Shown here one piece after another: positions 18,035 to 61,100 of a stretch of DNA of 64,000 nt. This DNA is from Raillietiella orientalis (taxonomy: Eukaryota), in NCBI GenBank assembly GCA_036172245.1, contig JAYWIR010000070.1:124001-188000 (forward strand). Direction: 5' to 3'. The notes under the pieces are model-generated. The model was not told where the DNA came from, ran no database searches, and saw nothing but the letters and a program-made list of their open reading frames with translations. Within the stretch, counting starts at the first letter, position 1. Each line of letters begins with the position of its first letter. Made by a program: the position numbers and the translations under genes.

Positions 18035-18699
18035 TTCTTCTGAGAAAGGCTTCCGTAGGAGGGAGGGAAGGAGGGAGGCAGGTAGTCTTTCACCGCACGC
18101 GATCGCACGAGCAGCCAAGCCTCGGGGCAACTGATGGGTAGTAGCCAACTGTGGGGTCTGAGCGCAATCAGGGATCTCTTCCCCAATGCCGTGATATGCG
18201 ACCTCTATGCTCGCTGACTCATGATCCCAGCGCAATAACCCGGCGGATCTCTGGAACCCGACGTGTTACGCAGGAAATCATCGCTCCGTGCTGATTGTAA
18301 GATCACGTGCCCTGAGTCAAACAACCTGCAATCACGATAAGCGCTGATCCGGAAAGCGGGGAGGTCTACCTTCGAGCACCTCTTTTGTTGGTTTTGGCGT
18401 TGCGGGATGGAAGGAACATGACGTTTCTTTGCTTCCTTTTTTTTTTTCTTCTTCTTTCTTCCTACCAAGAATCCCATATCTTCTGGGGAAGGAAACTCCA
18501 GCTCAGCTTGCAGTCTAAGTGACAGAGAACGCTGGAGAAATGAAAGCAGAAGTGCATCTCCGGGGGAGCAGTTTCACATTTTCGGTTTAAGGATGGGAGT
18601 GGCTTTCAGGCTCTGCCGGGGACGCAGGCGTTCCTCGTCGTGCGACGAGCTACACTTCTGTAAATCACGTCGTAACGTGATCTTTTCCCCCCGTGACAT

Positions 18700-19060
18700 C
18701 ATGGTCGCCCTCCAATAGCCGAAACGACCTCGGTGCTGGAGTGTTGGCAATGTCTTGCGTACAGTGGCCACGGGGACCGCAGTATCTAAGATCTTGGTGA
18801 GCGTCAGAAAGTGACAGGCCTCTAGATCCCTCTACGGGAGACTCTTCAAAGCTGCACGACGAAAGAAACACCGTCAAAGAAACAGCTGCTCATGAAGCAC
18901 CACGGCAACGGCCACCTCATGTGAAGTGACCTCGTCCGCCGAAACATCAGTAGCGATCGTAAGATGGGATGGCTGTTTGTAGGGGAATACGCATGCACAT
19001 CAGATCGCCTTGATGCTGTGGTATTCAGCAAGCACTTCCCTCTGGCCAGTAGCGACCCGA
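18700..19060 (-). mobile_element. Possible heavily decayed Ty3/Gypsy RNase H-like relic
   Basis: Minus-strand translation with stops gives FPYKQPSHLTIATDVS...AVVLH, resembling L.+ATDAS..G.GAVL. Weak support. Confidence 0.25.
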
Positions 19061-22000
19061 GCTTCTCGAAGGAGGTGCAACTGGTGTGCCGACCACAGAG
19101 TGCATCAAGGGAAACAGAGAGCGTTTCTTGGGGGTTTCTGCATTTTCCTGACGTCTGATGCACAAGTCAAGGACAGAGTGTAGGTGTATCCAGGTGTAGG
19201 TGATGTGTGAGAGCGCACCGAAAAGTGGACCTCAGAGATCTACTTGGATGTAACGCGAAGTGGTGGGGGTTTCCTATCAATCTTGAGGCGTAGAACTGTA
19301 GTGGGAAATCGCTTCTTGCATCTCCTGGATCTCTTCGTCAGTGTTTCAACGTCCCTTCGATTCTCTATCGAAAAAGTCACGCTTACCGGTCTCTATAGTT
19401 CGCCCCACTGTCTGTTATTAGCCATTTCGAGGGAAAAACCATGACAGCATCATCATCATAAGAGAAGTGTCGGTATCAGACAGCTGGAAAACTTACCGGT
19501 CGTGATGACAGTCATCTCTCTGTTAGGAATCGCATCTCAGGAACGTACATGAAAAAGCAGACTCCATTCGTTCCCATACATACCGTTTCGAAGGCATTTT
19601 CTTCGTCGGAGATGAAGTTGGGTTGCAGGCAGGATGCTGCCGGGAATCGCGATCTTCGAAGGAAAAAACTTGTTCCACGGACGCGAAGGGAGGTTCCCGA
19701 ATGGAACTTCTTGGATTAGACCGCTGTCAGCCTGAAGAGTGCGCAGAACACGAGGCAGTCAAGGCATGTTGTCTTGCTTCCCCTTTGGGTGGCAGCTTCC
19801 TTTGGAAACACAGGAACCGCTGCTGCGGTTGGTCTTCCGATCTAGAAAACCTATCACAAGCATGGGGAGCTCCCCTACTTTCGCCGTCATTTCCGAAGTT
19901 AGAGGCCCCACGGTGAATTCACGTTGTGGTTTTCTCGTTGTTGCATCTACAGCAGAAACAGCAGAGAGTCAACACTTCGGGTCCCACCCAACTTCCTCGA
20001 TGAAAATTCTTCCCAGACGCCGGATGGGCACAAGCAGCCCACGTCCGGTCTTCGTGATCTACGCTTAAGTGTTGGCTGCCTCCATGCAGTGTAGTTCATG
20101 GGGCGATGGGAGAGCTGATGCGAAGGACATGCACTGAACTTACAAGGTGTAAGTGCACAGGAACCCTTTTTCTGAGAACTAGTCCCAGGAAAGACTTGCC
20201 GAAATGGAACTGCAGAGAAAAGTTGAGGACTCGTTTAATGCAAAACAGAACTCCAGTAAGGAAGATTTGGCATAGCTGGTAAACTGCTGCAGCTATTGGA
20301 CGGAGCAGAGCTCGAGGCTATACTCTGGAGCACCAGAAAGGGGTTTCTGGAATATACAGGGAGAGGTGTTGTCATCATCAGAGGTGTCAGACATCCTGCA
20401 TTGAGGTACTTTTGAGTGTTCTATCTCTCCTCTTATTAGGCACCAGAGAAAATAAAGAAAGGTAGATACTTTGGCGATCACTTCTGTTAGCTCGTGAAAG
20501 GACCTGGCTACTCAGTAAAAGTCAGACGGGCCTCAGAACTCCAGATGGAATCACTCCTGTTCCTCTGGACTCGAGAAAGTCATGAATCGCGAAGATGATT
20601 ATCACGCAAGGTTGGGCTTGCACGCGTTCTTTATCTCTGATAATTACTTTTTAAGATAAATATGTACTGTCAGCAGCTACAAGAAGCAGCTTGGGTACTT
20701 CCAAGCGGGGATTTCTCCGATTTCTTTCTTCTGTTTCTTCAGCATAAGGGGCTGCCCTGAGTTTCCGGCGGGTAGCTTTTTTATTGTGCACATTCTTGAA
20801 AGACGGTGCGAAGTGATACGAAGACTTGTTGGATTGAGGAGCAAACCATGGATCCAGGAGCAAAGAAAGAAAGAGAATTCACCAGGAGAGCAATCAAGGA
20901 ACGAATTTGCTTTGCTCCCACGGGAAAGAACAGCGATGGTTCCTTGATAAGGACAAAGCCATACTAAATGCAAACAGATATTAGCTGTACCCGAACTCGT
21001 ATGCATTCGTCATGCACTCCAATAGCATTGATCCTCAATACGCAGGTATGTGTGAGCATGTAGTCTACGCAGGTGCAACTGTCGTCGTCGTCGTGGGGCG
21101 TGCGCAGTGAACACCCACCCCTACAAGAGCAACGGTCACAAACTTGGTGTTGCATTTCGTGTATGGCTGCAGGAGCCTGTGCGATGTCACAGATGCTACA
21201 CTTTGGTATTAGATGCCGTAGATGCTGGTGCGCGTAGTGAATGCGTTTGCCTGTAGCGAAAACGAAAGCAAAAGTTCTCTCACCTGTCGACCGGCGGGCA
21301 GAGCGGGTCAAGGAAGCAGGGAGGTAGAGAAAACGACTGAAAACACGGTAGGAAAGGAGCCGAAAACAAACGGGTAGGCGAACGGGAAGAGCCTTCGCTG
21401 ACGACCTCACGTGAACGCTGGACGCCAGAGATGTCATCCTCATCGTGTCTTGCCGCTCATCTGCCATCTCTCGGAGGGTAAAGGAGGTTTCCGCTTCCGT
21501 TCGGGAACATCTCTCTCGAAACCGAAACTGAGTCTGGCGCTTACAACTACGTCCCGAAACTTCGCTCCTTATAGCACCGATGAAAATCGCGGAAAACAAC
21601 CCACTTGTCCCATTTTCGGGCGGAAAGCAGAAGAGCAAAGGCGAGAAAGGATCCAGTGCAGTAGAGAAACTGCAAAGATGCTGCAGATTCTGTATTGCTT
21701 TTTTCTTCAGTAATTCCACCTCAGGGCCATGAGGCGCTAGATCTCTACACCTCGGAGAGTGGCAGGAGATTTTGAAGTGGAGGAGGATGAAGCAAAGGAA
21801 GGGAGCCTGGCTGCTTGCTACAGCCGAGTTCACAGGTTCAGACAAGAGGTTTCCTCGAAGAAGGAGCCTTCTCTTTATGCAAGAATGCATTGTGCAATGT
21901 GCCACGGTTCTTTCCAGCCCTCAGCCGAAGCTCACAAAGAGGAACTCAAGCTGCTTCACACTACTCCTAGTCTAATTTTCTGCATTGCCTTTCCTTCCAC

Positions 22001-23299
22001 TCCACTTCAAGGTCCCTATCTCTTGCCAGAAGGTTTCCAATTTGTGACTCGACGTCCATGTCGATCGCAAACACGAATCGTCACCTAATGATCTGTTGTG
22101 GGTCAATACAGTTCTTCCTTATTCTTCTTTCCGTAGGTTCATGCAGAAAATAGCTTTCGATCCTTCTTTTGACCCTGAACGTGCTGGAATATTGAAGCCA
22201 CTGAATAAACCATTAAGATTGTTTTTCAAGAAACATGCGCCATCTACACCCATCCCATTGCCTGTTGGACGAATTTATTTCAAATATAAAACCAAAGCTC
22301 GAAGTAAGGAAGAAAGAAAGAAAGAAAATAAGAGACGGAAGAAGGATCCTGACCTCGATGGGAAACAAAGGACGTTCCGAGATGGAGGCTTGCGTGCCAA
22401 GGAATCCCTGCGGATGGGTTTGCTATGTCCTCAGTGTCCAGGTCCCAGTCGATCGGTGAGTGGCTTGCAATCCACCATTCGGAGTTGAGATCCCGCCATA
22501 TGAGAACACATGTTCGCTCCTTCCTCGTCCTGATGCCTACCGCTGTTCAGATCTGTGCTGGGATCTCCCACGAAGAAGAGGATATCCTCGGGAGCGCTTT
22601 CCGTTTTCAGCAGCTGTCTTGGAACTAGTGAGCGTTGCACCTGACTATACATGCTTGCCAACAACTAGTGGACGTTTCCTGATTACAATATGTTCAGGTG
22701 AAGAACTCGGCAGACTCCGGATGGCTATCGCTCCCACGGTGGGCGGCAGGTACTTCTTTACTGGAACTGTCACACCCTTGTTCTTCCTGGCTCTCTGGAT
22801 GAAGAGGAGCTGACTGTTTGATTTTCGGCATTAGCTAGGCACGGCATACACCGCGATGGCCGCACTTGCCTAGTTCGGCATTGTCCTATCAGACACTGAA
22901 TTGTCCTAATCAGACACCTAAAACCACACGCCACTGCCCTGTCGAAGTATCCAGTAGTTTGGCAGCCGTACAGATGACAGTGCGAAAGAAGTCGGTCGTC
23001 CCACAGGAACTACGAATCGATAACGACACCATTCTTATCCAGTTTACGTTGAGGCGTTTCCTTTCCAAAGAAAGAAAGATAAACAGGGCATATGGATCAG
23101 TAAATCAACTAAAATTTCAAGAGGGAAGGAAAAGCAACAACAATAACCGATTCGTACACCGGCCTAGTAGATAATGAATTAAAAAAAATAGGAGGAAAGG
23201 AGAGACAACGATCACTGGTCACATCCGAGTCTTCCGTATCTTAGGTGTGCCGCCTAAGATACGGATGTACTGTCAAACGATGTCCTCCTCAAGTCCGTT

Positions 23300-24600
23300 A
23301 TTTGCTAAAGGTCATTTTGTCACAATACTGAGAGGTGAGGCGTGTGGTCCTTCCCCCTTCCTGATGCGCTCTCCTTGCCTGCTCCAGGACGAGGAACAGG
23401 TGAGGCGACGAAGACCACGTCTCGCCTAAAGCAGTGCTGCGGCAGCTCTTTGGGAGTGTCTTCCATGCGCTCCGATGGTCACCGTATCTCAGCAGGAGGC
23501 GCGTTTCGACGTTTCGACCTGCGCAGTTCGTAGAGGTGCCGTCCCACGTCCAGCTATGCCGCCGCTGATCGCACGGAACGCCCCAGTGCACGAACGGAGC
23601 TGTCCAAGTGGGTGAAAGGGGTTAAAATCTCTGATGACGAAATTTCCAGTCATTCTGCCCAACATTCATCCTTTAGAGCGGGCTCTGGATGCCCCCGCGT
23701 CAGCCAACCGGCGTGCCTTTCAGCCGGCTCACCAGCTTCGTCGCTCCTGCTACGGAGCACGAGACCACCAGACAGAGTCGGTTGACATCTGTCTTTGCCC
23801 TCCAGCAGGGAACACAGAACTGGGGTTAGGGGAGTTCCAGTGGACAGGATCCACTTCTCCTGGGTTTCTTTCCATTTCCTCCAGGGAGACCGCTCCCAGG
23901 TTGTGGATGGGACACATCAACTCTGCATCAGCACACTTGATGCGCAGGCAGGTGCTCACTGTCTCGCAATGCAGAGGTCTGTAGTTTGAGGGAAGACAGA
24001 TCCACGTATGTCCCTTCCATGAGATAGAGATCTGTCTCAGTGGGGACTTAGGCGACACTCGGTTGCGAGGTAGAAACGACGTCATTCCCTCACAACCGAC
24101 CGCGCTCCTCAGAATTTCGCGCACAGGCAGATACCGATGATGTATCCACTTCTTAGCCATTAAGACCAACATACTAAACTGGAACTGTCGCTTCATCTTA
24201 TTCAGTGTTAGGATGCCGAGTCCTGCATCCCTCCGTGGTGCAACAAGGTCTTTGAGGCCAACTTTGACAGTGAGAGACTCCATAGTGCTTTCGGCAGGGG
24301 GTCGTCTGTCCTACGTTCTGCCTCGTATGGAGGGAGCAAAACAACAAAAAAAGAGGAAGGGGGGATGAGAAAGGAGGCAGCTGAAACGTTCCAAATGGAT
24401 TCCCTCTCCGGAATGCAAAACTTGCCATTTCGGAACGGTGTTAGCGTCAATTCTGCCTTATGAAGGCAACTGGACCAAACCTCTGAGGGACAGAAGTCTC
24501 CCAAGGTATTTCATGGTATTTCGTGGTGCTGTACATGGGAATACCCAGGGACGAAAGGGTAATCAGGGTTTTCCTGCAGCCAACTCGAAGTAGCTGCTAG
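23300..24600 (-). mobile_element. Decayed L1/Tx1-like non-LTR retrotransposon 3' ORF2 fragment
   Basis: MKYLG near 24500-24515, KVGLKDLVAPRRDAGLGILTLNK (post-RT box), and a degenerate C-terminal FVHWGVPC...NCAGRNVETRLLL region. Many stops and frameshifts; ends approximate. Confidence 0.65.
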
Positions 24601-27600
24601 ACAACATAGTTGCTCAGGCTGTCACTTGCCAGATCCCTCTCCTCACTGGCACAGGGAACACGTGACAGCCCGTGCCGACAATCATGTCGGTCCCGGAGGC
24701 ATCGCTTGAGACGTTCCTCGAGTTGATCCGTCGCGGCGCTGGCATGAACAGTTCTGTTCCGTTGGTGCGGCGTGGCCTAGACTGAATCCGCTTGGGGATC
24801 TCCATAGTTCGGTATTCAAGTCCCTCGATGTGCTGTTGGGCGATTTCTCCCCGTCGGAGGCGTGGCTCAGCTGTCTTTAGAAGGCAAAGTCGTCTCTCGT
24901 CTAGTTCCAGGAATGCAAGTTTCTCTTTCCGGAAAGGACCACGATCTGGATTACTCTTGGGATGTATCCTCCACCTCCTGCCTTCCATTTGGTCCCAGCC
25001 CAGTAGTATCAAGAAGAGAACAGAGGACCTTCTGCGGAAAGACTTTTGGGGAGACTCGGAGGTCTTGGGTTTCTTTGGAGGGCTTGGACTACGAAACGGC
25101 CCCATCAGAGCAAGGAGAAACTTGCCGGCATCTTGCAAAGGGTACAGAACACTCCAGGGAGTTCTTGATGGTCATTTCCCTTGCCTCCAATACAATTATC
25201 TACGATTTTTCTTTGTCATTCATTTAATTTTTGTGTTGGGTCCTTCTTATTTTTTTCTGCGCAGAATTCCGGCGCAAGCAACTCTTGAGCATCACAGCCG
25301 CCAGGTTCATTTCGAAGTAGAGAGATGTCAATCCCACAGTAAAACACAGAATTTGTTTCACTTTTTCCATAGTAAATAATCGAACAAGGTCACGAGGAAC
25401 ACCCGGCCTGACCTGGTGTGGAAACACATGACTCCCGCTGAGAACAGCCACGGTCGTGCTGCGATAAAGCGAGCTCAGGTAAGACAAGGGTTTGCAGGAG
25501 GTCTAAGCGTTCCTGGTGCTCCAGATGGAGCTCCTGGTTTTCGGATCTTTTCGGGATCAACTTCTATCATCAAGATCACCGGCGTTTTCTTGGCTTTTTT
25601 GATCTGTTGGCTTGGTGTCTTATGGTTTTGCAGCACTCAGTCGCTACGACGATGCCATTGGACCGGGAGGAGTATGTATCCCCGAACTGAGCCAGCTGCG
25701 GGAAGATTCGAGTCTTTTCCTCAGCAGAGTTTTCCTCAGTCCTTTCCAGTGGGCAGCTCATTTGGGAACGTTTCGAGACAGCTCTTCGGTTCCCAGTGAG
25801 CACACCCAGAGACGTGATCGGGCGCTTCTTCGTGTTCGTGTGGGACGCGTTGTGGCCAGCCGCATCGAAAGCAGCTGCTTGCGGTCTTCGCGAGAGAGAA
25901 GAGTCCTGGGGATCTGACCTCGCGGAGAGGTAAGGTCGGAACGACAGGGGGGCTCCATCTGCTTCGCGAGGGATAGCGACGAGATGGCTTCACCAGGAGG
26001 CAATAAAGAGGCATTTTCAGGCATCCTTCGGAAGGTGCAGAGGACGCAACTGAACGGACTGAGACTGCTTCCCGCACCCTTTATTCGTGAAAAAAAAAAT
26101 GCACTTTTATTTTTCTCTTCTTTATCCTTGTCACTGTTTCGGAGACGGACCTTGCCGGTCAACGTTCCGGCCCCTGGGCATTTTTCCCCTGGACATTTGG
26201 ACATCGTGCGCAGTGCAGTCCCACTGCCACGACTACTTGAATGCTTACTTAAATGCTACTTGAATGCTCGGTAGCCTCTCTATGGCGCAACTGAGTGGCA
26301 GCAAAAAGACAGCTTGTCCGAAACCAGCTGCTAAGAGATCCAGAGGGCGCCGTTCACAAAGCTACCTCGAGTTTGAATCTTCAGCGTTTCCTGGTCTCCG
26401 GATCAGATAATTCCGCCGTCTCGGGGAGCCTCGACCACTCTCCCGACATCCTCCACGCACTGACAAGAGGTCCCATGCCTGCAGGCAGCAACTCGAACTC
26501 GAGTATGGGATGGCTGGACGGAACCGACGCCACTCTCCCTATACTGCTCCGCCCAAGAGAACAGTTGTTCGTCGAAAAAGACTCCTATCGCCTCCTCCTG
26601 CACCCCAGGTCCGCCGGTCAACAAGTTGCATGCATGCACGGATGTACACGGCTCGTTGATCTGCATGCGACGTAAATGAACCTCTTCGTTTGCTGGACAG
26701 CTTCCAGACTTTCGATTCTTCGGATGTTGGGTGAACGACGCTGGGGCTTCTGGAGGTTCAACCACTGGCGTTCGAGGTCGCTGAAGAATCTGCCGTTCGG
26801 CGTGCGAATGTTTGCGATTGACGAGGAGGTCCGAGTGGGATCTGGAGCACCTCAGCAGTAGATGCCTCCCGGCGGGAGCACCGCATAGGAAACAGCTTCT
26901 GCAGGATCGAACTCGTTCTCATTCCGGAGTTTCCCACGACCTTCCACGGGGATGGAATACATCGAACGCGAGGCGCCGGCTTTGGAGTTGCAGTACCGCG
27001 CCAAATGTGTGCTGTGGTTTTCCTGCCAAAGGGAGGAGGCATTGCCGGAGAGGTGAGTAGCGTTCTCTTCAACGAAGATCGAGTTCGTTGACTGGTACTC
27101 AATTGGTGCAACCCTGATCGACCTCGTTGGAAGCGAGCGTCCACGCACTCGGGAAAGCATAACGGAGAGGGTTGACCGGACGCAGTTCATCGGCCTGGTT
27201 GGAAGTGCCAGAGGCTCACCGTACCTCAGTGCCCAGCCGCGCATCTGGTAGCGGGAGATTTTTGAAATCCCCCCCTCCCGCTAGATTTGCCAGCAGTTGC
27301 CAGACGAGAGCCGGATCCAGGGTCATCTTTAGCAGGTCAGAGAGTTGTGCGCATGCGTGCAAGCGACGAACCTTGAATGAGGGGACTTCCTCGACCGCAC
27401 TTCCTTGGGCAACTACCTCACGTGTGGGAGGAAAGAAGGAAAAGAGTGCGATCGGCTCCGTCAGACCTCTCGAGTATCGGGAATGAGCTGCTTCCTTCTA
27501 AAGGGGGCCCTCTATCGGACTTCTGGCAGCTACTAAGAGATTGACTGAGGAACCTGGAAACAGCAGAGAGGCTGCGCAGGTTTCTCCACGGTCTTTTCGT

Positions 27601-30600
27601 TGAGGAGTACGGAGATTGGAACCACCTGAATACCTCGATCTGATAGTTAGGTCTTCGGTATCGGACCTGCAGACTTCGGGTGGGGTATCGGAAGAGAGAA
27701 GCACTCCAGACTTTACACACCATGCTTTACACTCCAGACTTCATTTAAGCATAAACAGGAAAAATAAAAAAGGAAGCCATTCCTTTGTAGTGGATATTTA
27801 AATCCCACTGCATCGTTCGGAGTCCAGGAGGCGTCTCTGCTCTCAATCAGACTGCCTAGTGAGGTCCTCACATGGATGAATGAGGAGGGAGCTACTGGAA
27901 GATTACTGGAAGAAATGGATTGTTTTCGTACCGTGAGGGGGGCAGGGCGAAGGATCACAGCAGCTTTTCTGCCATCCTCTCAAAAATGCTGGAGAGTTCC
28001 TCCTGGCACAGGAGGCACATCAGGCGCGACCATCATTCTGCCATCGTCACCCTGAGGAAAGAAGATGTGACGAGCCATGGCATCCCTGTTGAATGGAGTT
28101 TCGTTCTAGGACCTCGTGGAAGGGGTGAAAGCCCTTCTGCTGCAGAAAGGTGCTTTCATCATGTGGTGGATTCATTACAGACAGGTAATGCAGCACTTAT
28201 CTATCTGTAATGAATCCACCGCACTTCTAGTTTTAAATAAATGCTCTCCCTTGCTATAAGCATTACCACTACCACTTCCATTTATTAAACAAGAATACCA
28301 GCTAATGTCTTCCTCATTTCCAGGAAAACTCCAGAATGATACGGAGTTATAGCTGCTCAAAAACAGGAAAAAAGAACCGTTCCACGAATCCAAAAGGAAT
28401 AGGCTTGGCCACTTGTTTAGCATCTAATTCCACCAATGGTATCACAACATTACCTACAAGAATTTCATGAAACCACGCCAATTGTCACAACTGGCTCACT
28501 AACCCAGGAACATAAAGATTCGTCTTCAAAACTTTCAGAGTCTTCAAAGCGAAAGCAATCAGACTTTTCCCATTCCAATGGATGACTGTTCTGGAGCATA
28601 GAGAAGCTGCCCATGGAAAAACTCATGAGACTCAAGACAGCAATGGACAGTCTCATCAGACAAGCCCAATACCACCTAGTTGTCGCTGTTTTTGTTTTCT
28701 GTTTTTTTCAGAACATTCAAAGAGAAAATATAATACGAAAATAAAAAAAATGCAGAAATAAGAGCCAGAATGAAACAAGCATAATCGACGTGTGCATTCT
28801 TCAGTTGAGATTGGTTGTTTATCCGAATCCTTCAACCTTTGAAAGAGACGACTCAAGGATTAAAATGGTTTTTCGTTGCTTTCATTTCCGGTTTTTTTCT
28901 GCTCATCTCCGGGAAAATGCTGAAGATTATGTAAGCATCTAGGCTTCCAAATCTACGAATTTCCATCCATCCTGTTTATGTGGCACCATCATACTCAGAG
29001 GAGGAGCCCTACTCTGTTCAGGATTCTTGCGCCCTCTTCAGTCTCAGAGAGCATCACATCTGTCGGGGGGATGGGATCCTGCTCGCCATCCTCCCATTTC
29101 CAGAGTGGGTTTATTTTAACCGTGAATTCAGACATATTAATAGGACTCTATTTCACAGAATTTGGGATCAGAACATGTCATTGGGTCGCAGTACACGAGG
29201 GAAACTACCCTTCTCTTCCGAAAATTCGGATGGAGCATCTTTTCTTTTTTCTTTTCACGCTAGCTGACTTCAGTTGACTTGACTTCAGAGAAACCGACAA
29301 GAACAAGTGTCAGGACTCGAGAGGGCTTACAAATTGATGTTCAGGGACCTCAACTGGAAAGTACAGTATGTGTCATTGTATCACACACCGTGAACATCTT
29401 TGTCCTCCGTGCTTAGCCAGCAGCTCAGTAACATCTGTACTCGCTACATGTGTAAATGTCAGGAGCAATTTGGCCTTAATTGTCATCAGCACCAGCAGAT
29501 TTTGTCCACTTTGGAGGTCGGATGTGGGCACCTTCCGTATTACCTTCATGTCGGATGGAACCGTAAAGATAAAATGTCAAAGCGTTTTCTGGGAACTCAG
29601 AGAAAACGTTAAATTGTTCATGAATACGAAAGGTAATGTTGCCCTTGGAATGTAAAGAATTATTAATTTTGTGATCTAGCATATTTCGTGTATTTCCCTG
29701 GTGGTTTAACCGAACTGGACATCGAGCTCTAGGGTCCACGCAGCCAATCAATTGAGCCCACTTTAAGATCATTGATTCGCAAGAAAACTTGAATTCTGGG
29801 CACTTAAAAACTACTTAAGGCTCATTTCTCTACATCACAAGCAATGGAATCCAGTTTACAATAGGGAAGAACGTCAAAAACTAGAATCTTAGAACTTTCC
29901 AGCTTAGGAAAGAATTTCACCACAGGTTCGGAGTATATGATGAAATAAAGATGGAACGGTGGTTCCTTTCGCGATGCAATCGCAGATGACTCTGAACTTT
30001 CAGCTCGAATCAGTTATTTTACAAGTTTTACAGGACGACTCTATTTGACTAAAAAAAGAGTTCACTTTTACTGACTCAGTTTGCTAAAATGTAATATTTT
30101 TAATCTAAAGAAATTGAGACAAAAAAAATAGCAACGCCATGTTTAAAAACTCGAAGATCTGATTCAATAAAAAAATGTGATTATCAGGATTTTGTTTGAA
30201 GTTCCAAACTCTTTACTTTCTTTCTATAATTCTCCAATTGATGTTTGATTGATATAATTGTTCTTTAACAGGGAAAAATCATTTGTTGGTCTCTTCTATT
30301 CATTCTCTTTTGACCCATTTAGAACTGATGAGTCGAGAGTAACTCGAGATACGTCACCTAACAGTTATATCGGCCAACATAGGTGGCTCTTAAATAACTT
30401 AAAAAAAGAAATTAAACAAAAAGCTGCATATTCCAAATTTTAGACCTAAGGAATCGACATTTCTTGTGTGAGAAATTGTGTCAGCAATATGTTTCCTAAA
30501 CGGACTGCCATGAGTTGCATATTTCTGGGGCGGATATGTGTCCCGTTGAGGCAAGTTTCCCTATGGTTTGTGTATTAATGTCCGGGCGAGGCACTGATCA

Positions 30601-35397: not shown

Positions 35398-35415
35398 AAA
35401 TTGAATTTCGAGAAA
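35398..35415 (+). repeat. Left 18-bp target-site duplication AAATTGAATTTCGAGAAA
   Basis: Identical copy at 41063-41080. Confidence 0.92.
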
Positions 35416-35446
35416 GGACCGCAGCCTTTAAGGACTTAGTCAAAAA

Positions 35447-35586
35447 GGAGAAGGGCACGGGCAGTATCATAGGCGAGGAAGGCGACTGAGCCGTGATTAT
35501 TGCTAGTTGAAAACTTTTCCCAATACCCCGCCAAGGCAGTGAGTAACATCACTGCCGCGGCAATTTTTGCGTGCCCCGAGAGGGCA
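35447..35586 (+). ncRNA. U4 snRNA-like sequence (divergent) forming the retrotransposon 5' UTR
   Basis: GGCAGTATC...GATTATTGCTAGTTGAAAACTTTTCCCAATACCCCGCC matches the conserved metazoan U4 core almost exactly. Sm site AATTTTTG at 35562-35569 and 3' hairpin TGCCC-CGAGA-GGGCA at 35572-35586, similar to insect U4 3' ends. Confidence 0.9.
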
Positions 35587-35722
35587 AGTGCTGAGTGAAA
35601 AGACAGTGAGTGCGCAACCAAGGACGTCCCACAGCGACTGCAGCAGCAGAAGCAGCGAAAGGGAGTCCAAGGTGGAGGACTCGCGACCCTCCCTGGCGGC
35701 GGTGCAGCAGCACCCCGTCAAA

Positions 35723-37394
35723 ATGCAAGAGCAGCGGTGGATGGGAGCCACGGAGAAGCCACAGCCCATGGAGGTAGGGCAATCGTGTGTTTCTTCCGGC
35801 GCGACTCCGATGGAAGCGGTGGAGACGACGATGGCGGTGGCGGCGACCCCGGAGACGGCGGTCGCCGGAGCGATGGGAGGGCCCGTAGGCCCCACCGTTG
35901 CTAGTGACGCGACGCCATCTTGCGCGGTGGCTGCGACCGTGGGGCGGCCACCGGCAGCGGCGGCAGCTTTTTCCTATGCGGCGGTGGCGGCTGGGACGGC
36001 GACCACCCAGCCGCAGAGGAAATTCGGGAAGCCAGAGTCTGGGCCGATACGAGACATCGACGAGCCCATAATTAAACTAGGACCGAACGTGACGACGGTC
36101 ACGTTCAAGACTGGACTTATAAAAATGAACAACATCAAAGAGGTATACCTGGCTCTCTACAAACAGCAAGTGGACTTTGACCGCCTGCAGGCGATCGTCC
36201 CGAACACCTTGGGATTCACAGTGTACACCGACTGTGAAGAAATAAGGGAATCCCTAATTGAAAAAGGGATCAACATCCAGGGCAGGATAATGTGTGGCGT
36301 CGGCGAAATGCCGTACACCACCCTATTCCTGAGCGGACTCGGGCCGTTCGTCACCCAAAGGGCTGTGTAGAGGAAACTCGCAGTACGGCGAGGTACTGGA
36401 CAGCAACTTCCACAATATATCGGGAAAGATCTTTTCGGGGGAGGCGACGGTGAAGATGAAGTTGAAGGAGGAAGCCCATGTTCCTGGGATGATCTACTTC
36501 GACGGGGACGACATGGGAGTCTCCGTTCCATATAGGGCGCAGCCAGTTTTCTGCAACGGCTGCAAAACCTTTGGACACCGGCAGCGAGTCTGCCCGAGGG
36601 CCAAGTGCTTCCGCTGTGGGAAGCAGGGCCACCAGGTGCGGGACTGCAGCATGCCAGAGGTGTGTTCGTTCTGCAAGTCTCCGGGACACGCAAAGTGGTG
36701 CTGCCCGGAGTTTGCAAACTACAGAACGATGCGGGATCAATCCCCAGTTAGGACACGGGTGTTGGAGGAGGTAATCAAACCTCAAAGGGCGATGAAGCAG
36801 AGGAAGGCGAAGGAGGCAGCCCCAGTTTCGGCGGACGGCTTCACCACGGTGGGGAAGGGCGGCAAGAGGAGGATGCTCGTGAAGGAGCAAGAATCCTCTG
36901 CTGCGCAGGTCGAGGAGCAGGTTGGCGAGAAGGCCGAAGTAGAGCAGGTTGGCGAGAAGCAGGGTGTGCCGGGAGGCGAGGTGATGGAAATCACCGAAAC
37001 CGTTCTGACATCGCAGGAGGCGGTGCAGCTCACCGAGGAGGTGGTGAAGCTTCCGGAAGAAGTGCAGGGGGAGAAAAGTGAGGTGCAGCAGGAGCAACTC
37101 CTGACTCGCATCAATGAAACCCAACAGGGAATCAACACCCTGGTGATCCAAGAAGAGCGCGAAAAGCTAGAGAACCAGCTTTTCGAAGTGAAAGCGGCGT
37201 ACTGCGCGAAGGTCTCCCTTGAGACACTTCCGCGCAAGGCGATCGCCAGGGCAGAACGCACAATGGAGACAGACCGGGAGTCCACAGACCACACCGGCAT
37301 GGAGAGCGATGCCGGGAGTGAGAAGCCAGCTTCCTCGACGGTGAGACGCGAAAGGTCTCCCCGTCAGAAGAAGCTGAGGAAAGCGAAGCATTAG
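35723..37394 (+). pseudogene. LINE ORF1, gag-like zinc-knuckle nucleic-acid-binding protein (stop/frameshift at ~36368-36381)
   Basis: FSYAAVAAG motif; CNGCKTFGHRQRVC, CFRCGKQGHQVRDC and CSFCKSPGHAKWCC knuckles. The reading continues as QYGEVLDSNFHNISGKIFSGEATVKM after a frame change. First ATG at 35723. Confidence 0.88.
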
Positions 37395-37409
37395 ACTTCG
37401 AACCCTTTC

Positions 37410-40400
37410 ATGTCCTGGTCGCTAGCGAACGCCAGGAGGCTAAACATCGCCTCCTGGAACATCAATGGATTGACAGACCAAGGCAAAAGGAAGACAATCT
37501 TGCGGACCATCGCAAGACAAGACGTAGTGTGCCTACAGGAAACCCACCGTCTCGGGCAACAAAACGCCCAGGAGATGGAACGCCGGTTCAACGGGCAACT
37601 GTTTGTCAGCGAGGGACAAAGGAAGACCATGGGTGTGGCGATCCTCATCAAGAACGAGCTCGTCCACACCCTTCTGGAAACCTTCTGTCCACTCGCTGGA
37701 AGGATAATCGGCGTGCGACTGTCCCGGTCCGACAACGTTCACCTGTTTCTGGTGAACGTTTACGGACCGCACAAGAACAAGCATCGGTGCGCGGAGGCTC
37801 TCCACGAGGCACTCCGCCAACGTGTAGCACCGAAGGACATGGTCATCGTCGCGGGTGACCTGAATATTCAAGACCACATCAAGTACCGTCAAGACATCAG
37901 AGGAAGAGAGGCGTATCGACGGTTGTCCGACGACTTCGGACTCGTGTGGCGAACAGCCAGCCACAAACCGATCGATCACGTCCTTCATAGCGTGGAGATC
38001 GACAACCGAATCCAGGGTTTTCGCGACATTCCTCACCTGCTGTCCGATCACCCTTTGGTTCGGTTCTCCCTCCGCATGGAAAATCCGCGACGGCGAAAAG
38101 CCACTAGGGCGGCGCTCATCTGCATGCCCGCCTGGTTTGAGATGCTTCCCTGTCACCAGGAGGTGATCGAGGCGATTCTGCGGGACACCACCATCCGCAG
38201 AGTCGCCGACTGGGACAGGTTGAAGCATCGGATCCACCTGTTCTGCAACATGCAGTACTTTTGCAAGCGACTGAGGCAAGAAGCGTACCAGGAGCTCAAC
38301 ATCCAAGACCGCTCCCTCTCCAAGTTATATGATCAGTACGAGAGTCGGTACGTCTTCAATAATGTGAAAGGGGAGGTCGGCGTGCTGGAAAAGAAGAATC
38401 TGGCGACAGACATCTTCTGCATCCAGTACGGCGGCCAGAAACGGCACACGTCGGAAGACATCGTGGGAGCATTCCATCAGCACTACGAAGAACACTTCCG
38501 ACGGCAACACACGTGCAAGTCTATGCAGAAAACTTTCCTGAGCTACCTCGAGAAGAACACAAGCGATCTCCAGAGAGACAAACTGGAGGAGGATTTCTCC
38601 GAAGATGAGGTGAAAACGGCTTTTGGGCAACTGCGGAAGGACGTGGCAGCGGGCCCTGATAGTGTACCCATCACGCACTATCAGCGGTACCTGCACGCCT
38701 ACCTGCGCTTGTTCCACCAGTTGACCCTCTGCATCCGTGAAGAAGGAAGACTACCCGAGTCCTTCTACGAGAGTCGGATGAGATTGTTGCCGAAAGGAGG
38801 CGACCTCACGCAGGTCGCCCAATGAAGGCCAATCTCCGTCCTAAACTCCGATGCCAAGTGGTTGGCGAAAATCTGGTCCAACCGCTTAGGCAAGGTCATG
38901 CCGAAGCTCATCTCCGGTCCAAACATGTGCGGTGCCCGGACGCCACATATTGGACAATGTCAAGTGTGCCCATGCCACCGTGGGACTCAGCCGGTACGTC
39001 GGCGAGGACCTGGTGCTGGTGTTCACTGACATGGAGAAGGCTTTCGACTCCATCGACCATGGGATGCTGCTGAAGATTCTGGACAAGCTGGGCCTTCCGG
39101 AATACTTCAGCACCTTCGTGAGATTGGAACTCGAGAACCAGTACTGCCGAATCAAGATCAACGGCGAAGACACGACAGCAATTAGGATGGAACGAGGAGT
39201 CCGCCAGGGCGACTCGCTAAGCCCTATGCTGTTCGTTATTTACATGGAGGCGCTGTCCTCGTGCATCGAGAAGAGTGGACGCCTCCAAGGCATCCAGATC
39301 AACGACCAGCAGCTCACCCACCTGGCGTACGCTGATGACCTTCTCTTCTTCATCAAAGGAGAACGAAATCAGCGTGCATTCCTGGAAGTGGTGACGCTCA
39401 TGGAAGAAGGACTAGGATTAAAGATCAATGCAAGGAAAAGCCAACTTTTGCCCGTCGGAATCCTGGACCTCTCCGTCCTCATGGGGAGAGGATTCCGAAC
39501 GGTGGACACAGCCAAATACCTGGGAGTCCACATTGGCGACGGCCCTGCGTCGAAGCTTTTGTGGGATGAAACCCTGGGGAAAACGGCGAAAGAGGCAGCG
39601 AAGTACACCCGACAGGACCTTGGAATGAAACGCAAGGCCAACCTCTGGAATGGAGTCCTCCTTCCTAAGGTGCTCTTCGGGGCGGCCTTTGCGAGAGTGA
39701 AAAGGGGACACCTCGAGGGAGCTGGAAAAACTGCAAAGGAAGACATTATGGGGCCAATATCGCCCAAGAGTTCGTTTGAAACCCCTATGTCGTCCCAAAG
39801 AAGAAGGTGGAACCGGGATGAAGTCGCTTGCACACTCCATGGCAATCATGGACACCCGACACATCCTGGATATCGCCGAACAATGGGACGACTGGCCGTA
39901 CGCGGCGCATAGGGCCTACTCGATGTTGCTTAACAACTCGAAAGGTCTGATGACTGCGCTGCTAGGCCGAGTAGGGGAGTGGATGACCATCGACCCGACC
40001 TGGAGGAGGAAACAACTGCTGGTACGAAAGTACAAGATCAAGATCGTGCCAAGAAGCAGGGAACTCTGGCAACAGGAGTCCATCCTTGTGATCCCTTGGA
40101 TGCTTCCGGTCCCGGACGATACCCGAGGATGGATCTACCGGCGGCACAGAGTTACCTTGCAACGAATCCAGGAATGGAGAAAAGGAGGCCACCTACATCA
40201 TGCTCGTATACTTCAGTATATCGAGAAGATGCTAGGTAGGTTCACCCACCGGACCCGCGAAGTGTGGATAAACCACGATGACTTTGCGTGGTCCAGGGTA
40301 ACCAAAACAAACCTCCGAAGAATGATAAAGGATCAAGATGAAGACACCAGTGCCCTCCAGGAAGCGTCCAATCGCTACGGAAGCAACAGGATCAACCTGT

Positions 40401-40830
40401 TGGCGATCGGCACGATCCTATGGAGGAGTGACCTTCCTCCGGACAGCCAGGACAACCTCCTGATGTTTTATCACGGAGGAATCCTGAGCGGGTCCAGACT
40501 AAAGTACTTCACAAGAAGAAAAGGAGACGAAGACTGCCCAGCATGTGAAGACACGGATACCAGACTTCACATCCTGACGTGTCCCACATTGCTCCACGAC
40601 TGGCTGATCCTTAAACGGATCATTGGACGCACCACCAGTTCCAGATGGAGATCCTAGCCGGAATGTTTCAGGGGGATGGTAATGTTCCCTGTTACAATCC
40701 CATGGTGAGGACGACCATTGCCCTCTTCATCACTGCGATTCTGGTGCGGTGGTGGAAGATGAGGAAAGCCAGGAGAGCCGCACCTCCGTTGGAGATCCTG
40801 CGAAGACTCCTGAAGAAGGAAATCGGATAA
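37410..40830 (+). pseudogene. LINE ORF2: APE endonuclease, reverse transcriptase and C-terminal zinc finger (disrupted)
   Basis: IASWNINGL, VVCLQETH, VNVYGP, AGDLN, IDHVL, SDH (endonuclease); GPD, *RPISVLNSDAK, DMEKAFDSIDH, GVRQGDSLSPMLF, AYADD, KYLGV (RT); CPACEDTDTRLHILTC. Lesions: TGA at 38823 (expected Trp) and frameshifts near 38915, 39718 and 40640. Confidence 0.93.
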
Positions 40831-41062
40831 GAAATTGTGGAAGACGAGCAGCCTGGACGTACAGACTCATCCTTAAGAGGATTGAAGACGACGCCCGGGA
40901 CCAAACATCCGCATACCCACCCTAAGTGCAGAACTTCAGTGAATCCCAAGGACTTCCAGTGAATACAGAACAAGGAGTGTATTGTATGAATGTGACTGTA
41001 GTGTGAAGGATATTAAAAAAAAAATGAAAATAAATTTACTCCACCCCTTGTGGGACTTGGGA

Positions 41063-41080
41063 AAATTGAATTTCGAGAAA
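41063..41080 (+). repeat. Right 18-bp target-site duplication AAATTGAATTTCGAGAAA
   Basis: Identical to 35398-35415. Confidence 0.92.
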
Positions 41081-43872: not shown

Positions 43873-46800
43873 TTCTTATGGAAAATGTCAGAAAAATTCT
43901 GTTATGCTGTTTGGAAAGAATGTGATTGACTTTGAAATTCCAGCTATTGCTGTCGTTAATTACACTAAAAATTGTAATAAAAAAAAATTTAAAAAAGATG
44001 TCTTTTCTGAATTTTGTATTTAATAATTTCGGTTGCAGTTTTCCGAATTTCTTTTTGAAACTTGTACATTCCAGTGGGATTAGTACTCGGAACTGTATTT
44101 TTTGTTTTTTGATATTGAACTCTTTAATTCAGGACATTATGATTATTGTGGAACGAATCAAATAATGCTTTTGGGTAACCGACGATTAGACATTTGTTGG
44201 TGTTGTGTTTTGTTTCGGCTTATTTCGATATTGACACGTTCAAAGTTTTTCATTTTGTTTTTTTAACGGAATACTGTGGTGCATACTACTGTTGGTGAAC
44301 CAGGAAATTTTACTTGATAGAGCAGAAAAACTTCACTGTCTTCCACTTTTCTTTTACCTTCATTTGGCCATCTTATTAAAAGTTGCGCACCTCATATCAA
44401 AGGAACTCACATAAGGATGAGTACGTGAACATAAACCAGTTTCTCATTTAATACTCAATCATCCTATTTCATTTTTTCAAATATTTCAAACGTGACCATG
44501 GTCATGTCTCAAAATTTTGCCATGTTTACAAGAAAGATGGCAGTTATAGACTGATCGCACTTTCGTCGTCCAAGGTGGGCGTCTTATGGTTATTGCATGT
44601 CATCCATCGTTTTAACACCATTTTTACACAGAGATTGTGGTAAACTGGGTTTGCAATCACCCAAAAAGAAGACTTTTCCTTTCAAAGACTTTCCTTTTTC
44701 TTTCAAGCTGATAGAATTTCATGAATGCTGCTAAGATTTTTCTAGTCTTAACAGTTCTTTTTTGGCACAATGGCTCTCCTTCTATACTTATAGTTTCATT
44801 GATAGAATTTTTGGAATGCAACTAAAGCGAGGACACGATTACAGTGAAAGCAGAAATGAAAACAACCCAATCTACCCTGAATCCGGCTAAATTATGCTCA
44901 ATGAGAGGATTTGCTCACATAAAGTCAGTACATTCAATCAGTCAGAGGGTACCATGGCATTTGCACGCTTACCTAGGACCGAAAGATGAAAGATCCGACC
45001 GAAAAAGGCTGAATGCCAGCCGATGATGAAGATCATGTTGTGTTGTGGTGAATTTTTACGGATTACTATGCCAAAGATTAAAGTTTAATACCCCCCAAAC
45101 AGCTGGGAGCTGCGTGTGGCCTGGGACTCCATATCTCCATGGCTGATAGAGACTATGAACATCAACCTACTAGTTTAATTAACAGAGATATTAAAGGAAA
45201 ATGAAATAAGGCAATAGGAATCTTGACAAGAAAGCGAATAACATCAAGCACATGCTTTGGAGACTTTGTAAGCATCTTTAGTAAAGAGTAGACAATGTCT
45301 GACAGTTAGCTCTATGAAACCTATATGGGACTTCGGATCAACTTCAGGTCGTTGAAGCATGAAGTATCTCACATCGGCGTCAATATTACGATAATTTAGT
45401 ACACTTAGTTTTTCTCTATGAAACCTGGCATATTAAATTATGAGACTCTGAACAGTTAAGCCCATTAAGTTTTAGATGTAAGATTGGAAATGTTACTCTT
45501 AAGATTCTGTCTCGGTATAAGGAACCATGGAAGATATGAAGATGCAGAGAATGTCTAATTTGACGAGCATACACACTGTAGTAATCAGTCGGTATTTCGA
45601 AGCTGGAGTGTCCTGTGTTAATGGATTAGAATTCCATTTTATCGCAAGATTCTTGTTTGAGATATTCCAGAGATGTAACTCATAAACGGAAATTTTTATT
45701 TCTCACCATTTCGTAAAAATCTGAGCATGAACTAGATTCCATCAGGCAACTCCATACTTTAAAGATTCTAGAATGGATTGCTAACTAAAGACATCATATT
45801 GTTTAAAAAATGATTTTTAATACTGTTGATCACTTTGTTGGGATATTCCTATGACAGAAGCTCGAGTACATCTCCAGATGAAACAGCAAACGAGATGCAT
45901 TTGTTCAATACCCTCGACCTTGTTGAGGTTCCTCAAACTTTGTTCAATAATGGAACAGAATTAAAGCGTTTTATAGTTAAAAGAATGTTCCAAAGGAAGA
46001 GGAGAAGGACTACAACTGAGATTAAAGAATCGCAACCTTGGTGATAGCGAAGCACGCAATGAAACGATTTAAAGAGTTGAAGGAAACAACTATGGTATTT
46101 GGGAAACAACTTGGTACAACTATGGAAAATGCTAAAATTGGTAGTCTAAAAGTACACGGTTTTACTTAAAATTGTGTCTTCATTGCAAAACAAGGGACAG
46201 CAATATTAACGAATAAGTTTAGAAGTAAACAGCAACTACCTAACGACATGAAGGTGTGTTCGCAAGTTTTTGGATTTTTCGAATTTGGGCTGTGTCCTTT
46301 TTCTGCAAAGGATCACGTCGCAAATAGCGGAAACTTCTGACGCCCGAAGTAGAAAACTACATTGCGTCATCAGCTGCCACCTTTGTTACATTATTCGCGT
46401 CTTGCCGTGTCTTTTTGACATGGTTCTGGGAGTTCGTGTTCCTGTCACTACGGAGGAGGAATGACCACACCGTTTAAGTGTGTGGCAGGCACTCGAATGT
46501 ATGTGGGATGCGTTCCTAATGCGATCCGAGTGTTGTGCAACTACAAAGAAAATTTCCGTCAGGTATCCCAACATAGCTGAATACACCAAACCTGATGCAA
46601 TAAACCCTTTAGGTGCTGCCATAATTCCAGTGACCAATGGTGAAATCATAACCGGTGTTTTTTTATTTCGAAAAAAGGAATCCAAAAATGCCAACATAGA
46701 TCAACGGTAACGCGTCCGTTCTCGCCGCCAAGCAGCACCGCCCCAGGCCTCCGCTGCGCAGCGACGCCGAGCTGGAGCCCATCCAGGTGACCATCAAGAG

Positions 46801-46942
46801 CCTGCTGGAGAAGCAGCAGGAGCTGAACCGCTCAAACCATCCGTCTCATCAATAAAGTTCCCACTTCAACACATCACTGCTGAAGACGCAGTCGTTTCGT
46901 TATAATCAGATCGCGGCTCCCGTAAAATCAACAAAATAAGCA

Positions 46943-47330
46943 GCCAGTGTCGTAGGCCTTGTGGTTAAGGCTTCCGCGTGTGGTACCACGCGTCGCGGGT
47001 TCGAATACTTCGGCAGAAACTCTGACGCCACTGAGTCGTCGAGTTCCGAGTTTCTCCTGTAATGGCGCTGGTTGGCCGAGACATTCGGGCGTGGCACCGG
47101 CGGTGGATTAAGCAGGAGGCCCCCGATGAAGGCCGAAACCATGGGAGTTGACCTTCGGATCTTACCAGGAATCCAGGAGTGGGGAGTTCCCTCTCCTGTC
47201 GTGCAACGGAGAGCAGACCCCCCACCGGGGGACCCCTTCGGCTTAAAGATGGAGCAGGAGCCCTCACTGGCACCTCTCCAGCTGTTCAAAGGAGCGGACC
47301 CTCCCCGTTGCAGGGGGGACCTTCCGTTTT
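46943..47330 (+). mobile_element. tRNA-derived SINE-like element (tRNA-His-like head, structured GC-rich body)
   Basis: D-arm/A-box-like GCCTTGTGGTTAAGGC (46956-46971) and B-box GGTTCGAATAC (46998-47008), but no intact cloverleaf. Followed by ~320 nt of GC-rich hairpin-prone sequence ending in a T-rich run. No clear TSD. Confidence 0.55.
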
Positions 47331-49484
47331 TCTTTCATTGGGGTTCTCAAAGCATTTTTTGCAGGCGCTCAGGGGAATGTGTGGGTCTGTCACGTGCCTT
47401 GAGGCGGCTTTCCTGCCGATGAAGGAACGGGACAGTTGAGACCATGTTAATGCCAAGATCGATATGGTAGGTCTTTCTCAGATGCACCCCCTTGCCGTGG
47501 GAGGGGTGACGCTCTGTGCATTCAGAATCCGTGGTACGAGGTCACATAAGGGACTCACGAGCCTCGAGCAGTTCTGTTCTTCAAGAACCAGCCGCAGGGT
47601 GATGACTCTGCATCCCTGGATCAGGAGGAGGATAGACACCTGAGCTCTGTCCCTCCCTCTCCATGGCTGTGCAGAGAAGCCAACGCTCGTCCGCAGACGC
47701 AGGAGGCAGAGACGAGACAATAAATGCCATAGGCTTCCAAAAAAGTGATCATAGGAAAAACGCTGTTGCTCTTTGTGGCCCTGGTGCAAGGATGCGTTTT
47801 TCTTCTTCTTCCAACATGTTGCCTCATCTGCTCACCTCCTATTCCATTATGGACCTTCTTTCTTAAATAGAGTCAAGGCATGACCCACCGAGGGATCACA
47901 GTAGTGAGTGCTGCAAGCCATTCGATGTCGCTCGAGTATTTGCCGCCTTCTGTGCTACGTTAATTACTTTGGCAGTTCCCTTGGAGTTAAGTGCTATCTA
48001 ATGTAAGAAGAAACCGAAGCGCAAGATGAACTAGAGGATGAGCAACAATTGAAGATTTAGGAATGTAAACATTTCTGTTTTTTCAGTTCAACAAAATTCC
48101 TCTATATTCTTCTGTGCTGCATGGTTTGAAGGAATATACTAGTAACTTGATACTGATTCAAAGTACAAACAATTCTCGTATTGTTGTGAGTCCAATTGAT
48201 CTAAAAGAAAGAGGAATACCTTAATTTGTTTTTTATACTTCTGCTGGATGAGAATAAAGTAGATACATCTCATCACCTTCAAAATGAAATATATGTCGAC
48301 AAAAGGTTAAAAAATCACTGAAGATCCTTCCCATAAATTTATGCTTTCCTTCCAATCATAAGCAAGTAGTTAATTTTGAAACAGACGTGAAACTAACTCC
48401 GATGCCACAAGAGGCAGTTTTTCAGATGTTTAGTTCAGTGTAATCGTGGATCACAAAACCTTTTGCTAAATGAGATTGGAATCTGCTAATTGTTGCACTA
48501 TTTTAATGCTATGAAAACGTATGAGATATCATTGATGTCACAGGGCAGCTGAGACCAGGGAAACGAATGTTTTTTTATGTGTTGTATTTCTACATTTGAC
48601 ATATTCGACATTTGACATTTCAGAATGATTCTAACAATCAGTGATCTGAAATACATTTTGCAAATGTGCTTGCACAGTTACACGGACATAATTTATGAAT
48701 TTAACATTAAGATTGTATTTGAAGTTCATTAAAAACATAGGTGTGTAATAGCTTCTGGCTTTGTGCTGTATTTGTTCAATATTTAGAATCTTTGAAACCA
48801 ATCTTGATTCTCAACATAAAGGGAAAAAAAACGGGAAAAACAAAATCTGTATCATCATGGGCTAAGCATTTCAATTAATTTTCTAGATGTTTCCTCCTCT
48901 TAATTTCCTTTGATCAGTGAATAAACAATTTCAAGGGGTTCTTGCAGTAAGAGTTCGCAAAATTTTAAATGATTTGCAAATGCAAATTTCAGATTATAAA
49001 TTAAGAAATGAAACTATTTATCATTATCTGATTTGTGTTTATGTATGTGAAGTTTTTTAAAAATTGTTCATTACTTTACGCTTTCGTTAAAATCAGAAGT
49101 GCATATTTTTGAACTCGAGACGGTTTATGTTTTTAAAGCTGACCATTTTTCACGAATAACGAAGTTGTCCATTTTCATGATGGACTTCGGTATTGTAAAT
49201 ATGAGGAAATTGTAGAAAATCTTGAAGCCTTTGCTTGCCACCAAGTAAAGGATGTTCCTGAAATATTCAGAAATTCATTTAAGGAATACGAGTGTGACTT
49301 GCTTATCCTGAACAGCTTACTTTATTTACCTTGTGATGTGTGTTCGCTTGCGTGCGTGAACACATGTAGCATAACATACCGTGGTATACCTGGTGTTTAC
49401 CTCCGTGATGTGTACAAGGATATATAGTGTGTTGTTTGTGTAATAAAATATGTTCAAAATGCGAGTTTAGGTTGAGTGTTCACA

Positions 49485-60992: not shown

Positions 60993-61100
60993 TTGCACCT
61001 CTGCAAGAGTTGGCTCTCCGACAGGCGTAGCTTGCTAGTAGGTGGCAGGGAACTCGGGGAATCTGCCGTTCCTTCAGGAATGATCCCGAGGTATCTCTGG
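60993..61100 (+). mobile_element. Short non-LTR RT relic
   Basis: CKSWLSDRRSLLVGGRELGESAVPSGMIP resembles the S+LS.R.Q.V..G..S....V.SGVPQG segment of LINE RTs; isolated. Confidence 0.35.

Follow-up and report, generated by a model that had tools for sequence, protein, structure and literature searches.

A U4 snRNA-like segment in the 5' untranslated region of an arthropod non-LTR retrotransposon may be a heritable RNA module

RESULTS

A non-LTR retrotransposon bounded by a perfect target-site duplication

The 64-kb stretch of DNA analyzed here (the window) contains a 5,647-bp non-LTR retrotransposon of the AP endonuclease (APE) plus reverse transcriptase (RT) type at positions 35416 to 41062. 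Base composition marked both of its ends, the A+T-rich host DNA turning G+C-rich at 35416 and reverting at 41062, and the element was flanked by an 18-bp target-site duplication (AAATTGAATTTCGAGAAA), the 5' copy of which lies at 35398..35415 and the 3' copy at 41063..41080. The duplication was perfect; its two copies were the only exact matches to this sequence in the window (chance expectation, 0.01), and none of 100 shuffles gave two. The trinucleotide GGA adjoins the duplication at both element ends.

The plus strand of the element begins with a 37-nt leader of non-U4 sequence (35416..35452), followed by a U4 snRNA-like segment (35453..35586) and by the remaining 136 nt of the 5' untranslated region (UTR), which extend to the first ATG of ORF1 (35587..35722). 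Neither the leader nor the UTR downstream of the U4 part had informative or significant similarity elsewhere in the window, and no RNA family match rose above chance in the rest of the 5' UTR. A near match to an initiator/DPE-type promoter, seen by eye just 3' of the U4 part, was dropped because its spacing was off by one. ORF1 (35723..37394, plus strand) is interrupted near 36333-36370 by a frameshift, which divides it between two frames, and encodes CCHC zinc knuckles (zf-CCHC, E = 5e-5) with nucleocapsid-type knuckle matches in the PDB. ORF2 (37395..40657, plus strand) encodes an AP-type endonuclease (Exo_endo_phos, E = 2.8e-18) and a reverse transcriptase (RVT_1, E = 1.5e-24), the closest solved structures being LINE-1 ORF2p and R2 proteins. 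An in-frame stop (38823-38825) and two frameshifts (~38900 and 39701-39912) break ORF2 and, together with the one frameshift in ORF1, make this copy of the element a dead one. The two ORFs share a frame and are separated by a single stop codon, the first ATG of ORF2 lying 16 nt downstream (37392-37410). The 3' UTR (40658..41062, plus strand) terminates in A10, then an A-rich stretch, and finally a tail of 27 nt that is richer in G+C; the 3' end of the element (41005-41062) lacks a long poly(A). With an endonuclease and an RT in ORF2, a nucleic-acid-binding ORF1, and a target-site duplication, the element belongs to the APE-type LINEs.

Protein searches placed the element far from its nearest known relatives. 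The best match of the RT among 1.84 billion representative proteins was 38% identical, the N-terminal part of ORF2 gave nine protein matches of at most 35% identity, and the ESM Atlas returned generic LINE endonuclease clusters only. No relative of the RT protein was found in viral contigs, and a protein search with the N-terminal part of ORF1 and the in-frame translation of the UTR, in which U4-encoded extensions in relatives were sought, gave no homologues.

As neighbors in the host DNA, the element has an exon of a class II aminoacyl-tRNA synthetase gene and Clp1. The latter was 74% identical to that of a termite, and the best 120 of its 511 matches were all arthropod or unnamed, which points to an arthropod host, most likely an insect. 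Other G+C-rich blocks (50 to 60% against a background of 30 to 38%) occur at 6000-9000, 12000-28000, 46000-48000, and 58000-64000; the first two contain long ORFs without a Pfam match, and the last also contains a gamma-glutamyltranspeptidase exon (61879-62487, minus strand). These blocks may be further transposons, and none is related to the U4-bearing element. A hairpin at 1793-1859 gave weak microRNA-family matches on both strands, to mir-4766 (31.5 bits, E = 0.03) and mir-451 (23.9 bits, E = 0.95), both scores being far below the gathering scores.

The U4-like segment and its fold

A cmscan search matched the Rfam U4 model RF00015 to positions 35447-35585 of the plus strand with 83.4 bits (E = 4.6e-17). 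The match covered model positions 1 to 138 of 138 and exceeded the gathering score of 46, which assigns the segment to the U4 sequence family; relaxing the threshold to E <= 1 brought up no second U4 match in the 64-kb window. The segment lies within the 5' UTR in the same (sense) orientation as ORF1 and ORF2, and since the segment and the rest of the element are enclosed in one 18-bp duplication, they were inserted as one retrotransposed unit. The 144-nt stretch folded at -55.2 kcal/mol (z = -3.9), and none of 200 shuffles was as stable.

The initial annotation had described a U4 secondary structure kept through compensatory-looking substitutions, and every helix and motif that it listed was located on the sequence where it had been placed. 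The 5' stem-loop, which carries a K-turn-like motif (35466-35497, plus strand), is built from ATCAT (35466-70) paired with GTGAT (35493-97), GGC (35472-74) paired with GCC (35490-92), a GAG bulge (35475-77), tandem GA (35478-79) facing GA (35488-89), and AG (35480-81) paired with CT (35486-87) and closed by GCGA (35482-85). It is followed on the same strand by the stem-I strand and linker (35498-35529), in which the U6 stem-I strand TGCTAGTT is retained at 35501-08; by the central stem-loop (35530-35561), whose stem is formed by GGCAGTGA (35535-42) and TCACTGCC (35549-56); by an intact Sm site, AATTTTTG (35562-35569); and by an intact 3' hairpin (35572-35586) with a 5-bp stem, TGCCC (35572-76) with GGGCA (35582-86). 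Standard pairs occupied 24 of the 28 pairs of the RF00015 model structure. The nonstandard pairs were 36-40 and 96-101, which close loops, the internal pair 87-110, and 127-138, the outer pair of the 3' hairpin, a position that becomes paired in the shifted 5-bp register of the hairpin proposed in the initial annotation.

By eye, a direct repeat that is short and imperfect, AGTCAAAAAG (35438-35447) and AGTGAAAAG (35594-35602), was noticed on the two sides of a 146-nt stretch, approximately the full length of a U4. Such a repeat could be the trace of a nested later event, in which a U4 retropseudogene entered the 5' UTR of a resident copy of the element and never travelled with it. This is the least probable of the explanations that we considered: the repeat, 9 to 10 nt long, imperfect, and A-rich, may be a chance occurrence; the 3' side of the U4 part has no A-tail; and a recent U4 retrocopy should resemble the host's U4, so that the divergence of the segment described below would be as much of a problem as for any other recent copy.

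Uneven divergence with preserved pairing

Divergence from U4 was distributed very unevenly along the segment, as judged from column counts made by hand in cmscan alignments to the single model RF00015. The first six model columns, the 5' terminus (35447-35452, within the leader), had no match to the consensus (0/6), and columns 7-19 matched at 10 of 13, with a difference at column 8. In the 5' stem-loop (columns 20-52), 17 of 33 columns differed, and 10 of 11 pairs were nevertheless standard. The following 34 columns (53-86), which include the stem-I strand, the linker, and the start of the central stem, contained one mismatch and one inserted base, and the Sm site (AAUUUUUG) matched at all 8 positions. 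Among the strongly conserved (upper-case) consensus positions, 45 of 54 matched; the 9 that had changed comprised five at the 5' terminus, A29 and U31 of the bulge, and positions 71 and 124.

In the 5' stem-loop, relative to the consensus, four pairs had changed on both sides, and one single change preserved a wobble pair. Relative to the human K-turn strands, taken as printed in PMC2952850, the six changed paired nucleotides formed exactly three compensated pairs (G-C to A-U, C-G to G-C, and G-C to A-U), with no uncompensated stem change; two further changes fell in the bulge. When six random substitutions were placed on 20 paired nucleotides, all 10 pairs remained standard in 0.12% of 400,000 trials, and with 24 changed paired positions, the number that differ from the consensus, four or fewer nonstandard pairs were obtained in 1e-5 of 200,000 trials (mean, 14.4). 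In these comparisons, "compensatory" is defined relative to the Rfam consensus and the human K-turn strands, not to the U4 of the host.

Together, the random-substitution trials and the unevenness of the divergence (17 of 33 columns beside 34 that are nearly unchanged) indicate that the RNA lineage behind the segment was under constraint, and the pattern is not the one that uniform neutral decay would leave in a canonical U4. The initial annotation had gone further and read it as selection on RNA structure rather than neutral pseudogene decay. The uneven divergence, the three compensated pairs with no uncompensated stem change, and the 0.12% expected by chance bear out part of that reading. 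The remainder is weakened in that any natural U4 from a diverged lineage would show compensated stems relative to the consensus and that the fold of a young copy is uninformative about the time after insertion. The copy appears to be young, given its perfect 18/18 duplication, and its intact fold thus reflects the source RNA and says nothing on selection at this locus. The constraint would have acted on the RNA lineage, whether this was the lineage of the element, a variant of the host's U4, or the host's U4 itself.

A natural U4 served as the control for these comparisons (n = 1; 99.7 bits). It was the one real eukaryotic U4 among five loci found in prokaryote genome contigs by a stem-I-to-Sm-site pattern, and it sits beside U2 and U5. 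The locus (L007; JAYXXU010000075.1, positions 1089-1772) lies on a 2-kb contig filed under a Pseudomonadota metagenome-assembled genome (MAG), on which eukaryotic U2, U4, and U5 stand in a row; the contig is eukaryotic contamination of the MAG. In the 5' stem-loop of the control U4, 10 columns carried compensated changes, all of them paired, and the control retained the 5' terminus and the A-G-U bulge.

The behavior of the control bears on the possibility that the segment was copied recently and faithfully from the host's normal U4, its differences being those of the lineage's own U4 under spliceosomal selection. Natural U4s do depart from the consensus by compensated stem changes, as the control illustrates, and the central strand and the Sm site of the segment are consensus-perfect. 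We nevertheless regard this origin as highly improbable. The U4 5' stem-loop generally varies little between flies and humans, those of insects being canonical, and the host is an arthropod, most likely an insect, by its Clp1. Moreover, the upper-case positions that are broken in the segment (5' AUC.UU and A29 and U31 of the bulge) are kept in the control, and the change of U31 to G is function-depleted in human U4 (PMC13253345). The broken conserved positions thus argue against a fresh copy of the host's normal U4 as the source of the sequence.

Loss of positions specific to a working U4

The same positions suggest that the segment is probably no longer a working spliceosomal U4. In the stem-I strand, the Sm site, and the 3' hairpin, it agrees with a working U4. 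The conserved 5' terminus required for U4/U6 stem II is missing (none of the first six columns matches, and column 8 differs), in contrast to the control, which keeps these positions. Likewise, the K-turn of a working U4 has an A-N-U bulge and tandem G.A/A.G pairs; the segment has the tandem GA/GA and a GAG bulge, both conserved bulge letters, A29 and U31, having been altered (AgU to GAG). Saturation editing of human U4 identified nucleotides 6-11, 27-33, 42-46, and 118-126 and part of the terminal stem as function-critical and reported n.31T>G in RNU4-2, the same change as in the segment, as a depleted variant (PMC13253345). It is the conjunction of the unmatched columns 1-6, the change of both bulge letters, and the depletion of U31G in human U4 that points to a nonworking U4.

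The altered bulge also affects the expected protein binding. The sequence fits a kink-turn motif, and the kinked fold itself is a prediction. The stem-II length of the motif equals that of the U4 model, and its loop is the 4-nt GCGA as opposed to three loop columns in the Rfam U4 model. With the change of the bulge to GAG, a second, bulge-less register becomes possible, in which the tandem G.A pairs lie in a symmetric 2x2 loop; this register was calculated at -8.3 kcal/mol and the K-turn register at -7.2 kcal/mol, by a nearest-neighbor energy model that leaves the tertiary contacts of the K-turn unscored. The third bulge nucleotide occupies a protein pocket, and its mutation is described as deleterious for binding by 15.5K/Snu13p and L7Ae (PMC1874613). 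Binding of Snu13 to the segment, which has G at this position, is doubtful on account of that dependence (PMC1874613) and of the depletion of U31G in human RNU4-2 (PMC13253345).

The sequence that replaces the U4 5' terminus, GGAGAAG (35447-35453), paired with CUUUUCC (35514-35520) in both the minimum-free-energy and the centroid folds. CUUUUCC lies in the conserved central strand, and the pairing closes the whole 5' domain, a closure absent from the single control U4. So closed, the 75-nt 5' domain was unusually stable (z = -3.2), and that of the control was not (z = -0.8; n = 1 control).

The position of the segment within the element also differs from that of a gene. The segment begins 37 nt from the element start, leaving no room for an upstream promoter of its own inside the element, and a promoter located ~55 nt upstream would therefore fall in the host flank. 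Since snRNA genes are described as having no internal promoter (PMC4494074), the U4 head alone cannot secure transcription from the first base of the element.

Searches for further copies

No second copy or fragment of the element was found in the window by blastn with the element or by tblastn with the five ORF pieces, which returned nothing but self-matches and a single antisense match of 45 nt (80%) inside the element; a repeat-family search of the window gave no families. In metagenome contigs, the 21-nt K-turn stretch occurred at three loci, none of them a U4 by Rfam and hence chance matches, and in viral contigs a generic 18-nt U4 motif occurred at three loci, none of them a U4. No report of a U4-headed autonomous LINE was found in the literature searched, a limited collection. 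With only one copy seen, "heritable" is an inference wherever it is used of the segment below.

DISCUSSION

A U4-derived module or a one-off chimera

The anatomy of the locus is plain: the U4 segment and the retrotransposon form one unit, the segment is in sense orientation, its fold is intact, and its U4-specific positions are broken. The explanation that we consider best, at a probability of roughly 40%, is that the segment is a heritable U4-derived module of the 5' UTR of the element, with a fold shaped by selection, and that it is no longer a spliceosomal U4. According to this explanation, a U4 snRNA sequence would have been captured at the RNA level, the homology ending, as it does, at a mature-type 3' hairpin, and would now be part of both the transcript and the insertion unit of an APE-plus-RT non-LTR retrotransposon. 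The source element would already have carried the U4 sequence as a heritable module of its 5' UTR, and selection would have kept the helices, the Sm site, and the central strand while the sequence of the 5' stem-loop changed. The spliceosomal role would have been lost with the replacement of the 5' terminus that pairs in U6 stem II and the change of two bulge letters. As a further speculation, the module could act as a compact, self-closed, Sm-site-bearing 5' domain on the long element RNA, and its service might be RNA stability, or Sm-core assembly with its consequences for the cap and for nuclear import, rather than that of a promoter.

Nearly as likely is a one-off chimera. Here the RT, having copied a full-length element RNA to its 5' end, would have switched templates to a diverged, expressed U4 variant RNA, either at the present insertion or at that of the immediate parent, perhaps followed by another switch, to a third RNA from which the 37-nt leader derives; the U4 part would then lack a function and look intact only because it is young. 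Documented snRNA/LINE-1 chimeras, among them some with U4, have the same layout (bioRxiv 10.1101/2025.02.02.635956; PMC4494074). The homology to U4 ends just beyond the 3' hairpin, where that of a mature RNA template would be expected to end; the copy is young, as judged from its 18/18 duplication, and needs no selection for an intact fold; and a second copy was not seen within the window. On the other hand, a freshly copied normal U4 would be expected to agree with its source, and the head lacks its first 6 nt, has a changed bulge, and differs at 17 of 33 columns beside 34 nearly unchanged ones. A chimera thus presupposes, as its template, an expressed U4 variant that had diverged strongly without losing its structure, and such a variant is itself unexplained, which counts against this origin. 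In addition, the known L1 chimeras combine a 5'-truncated LINE with a mostly full-length snRNA (bioRxiv 10.1101/2025.02.02.635956), and here the LINE is full length and the snRNA is 5' truncated behind a leader.

Several points weigh against the module. If the host's U4 or an expressed variant of it carries the same changes, then selection within the element is unnecessary. The near-perfect central region, furthermore, is more easily reconciled with a recent capture than with a long stay in the element and sits awkwardly beside the many compensated changes of the 5' stem-loop. The single copy seen, the lack of an internal promoter in snRNA genes, the weaker Snu13 binding expected with G in the bulge, the competing register, and the comparison of folds with one control also count on this side. 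A small share of the probability was assigned to none of the four explanations considered (module, chimera, host U4 copy, and nested insertion).

The heritable-module explanation can be extended to a U4 domesticated by a lineage of autonomous arthropod LINEs. The U4 would act in cis as a domain of the 5' UTR, with a selected fold, a self-closing 5' end, and a K-turn retuned away from Snu13, and through it the element RNA could acquire an Sm core and draw on snRNP biogenesis (cap hypermethylation, nuclear import, and stability) for retrotransposition. We regard this fuller scenario as unlikely in its entirety. If it were true, a protein-coding LINE that maintains a U4-derived Sm-site domain would be a transposon imitating a host RNA in a novel manner and would offer a direct handle on the stabilization or import of LINE RNA. 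If the locus is instead a one-off chimera, its lesson would be narrower: arthropod LINEs, too, switch templates onto U4, and the host expresses a U4 variant RNA that has diverged strongly and preserved its structure.

Comparison with known systems

The segment shares the architecture of genuine U4 genes (RF00015), with a 5' stem-loop containing tandem G.A pairs, a stem-I strand, a central stem-loop, an Sm site, and a 3' hairpin. It differs from them in its replaced 5' terminus, in the change of the bulge from AgU to GAG, and in being embedded 37 nt inside a transposon instead of standing behind an snRNA promoter. The kink-turns bound by L7Ae-family proteins, such as those of the U4 5' stem-loop and box C/D RNAs, likewise have a C stem with, in the segment, three Watson-Crick pairs, a 3-nt bulge, and tandem G.A/A.G pairs followed by two Watson-Crick pairs; the segment differs in having G instead of U as the third bulge nucleotide and in the competition from a bulge-less register.

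Fusions of snRNAs with LINEs are known from mammals as dead-end by-products, and snRNA-derived heads are known only from short, nonautonomous retroposons. The snRNA/LINE-1 chimeras (of the U6/L1 type and also with U1 to U5) arise, by the accepted view, when the template is switched or RNAs are ligated in the course of target-primed reverse transcription, and the mammalian ones are described as nonpropagating by-products (bioRxiv 10.1101/2025.02.02.635956). As in those chimeras, the snRNA at the present locus lies in sense orientation directly 5' of a LINE and within one target-site duplication. The LINE part of the chimeras is 5' truncated in that account, whereas here it is complete, its own UTR and both ORFs included; the snRNA, for its part, lacks the first 6 nt, stands behind a 37-nt leader, and has a strongly diverged 5' stem-loop. 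The LINE itself is an arthropod one without a long poly(A), and its RT is at most 38% identical to any of the 1.84 billion representatives.

The SINEU retroposons of crocodilians carry heads derived from U1 or U2 as a family trait and were probably born by template switching (PMC4494074). They are short and nonautonomous, whereas the present element is a protein-coding LINE with a U4 head, and their family status has been shown, whereas the present element is known from one copy. In the SINEUs, as described in the same report, an snRNA-derived 5' head is heritable without an internal promoter, and they thereby provide a precedent for reading the U4 segment as a module of its element.
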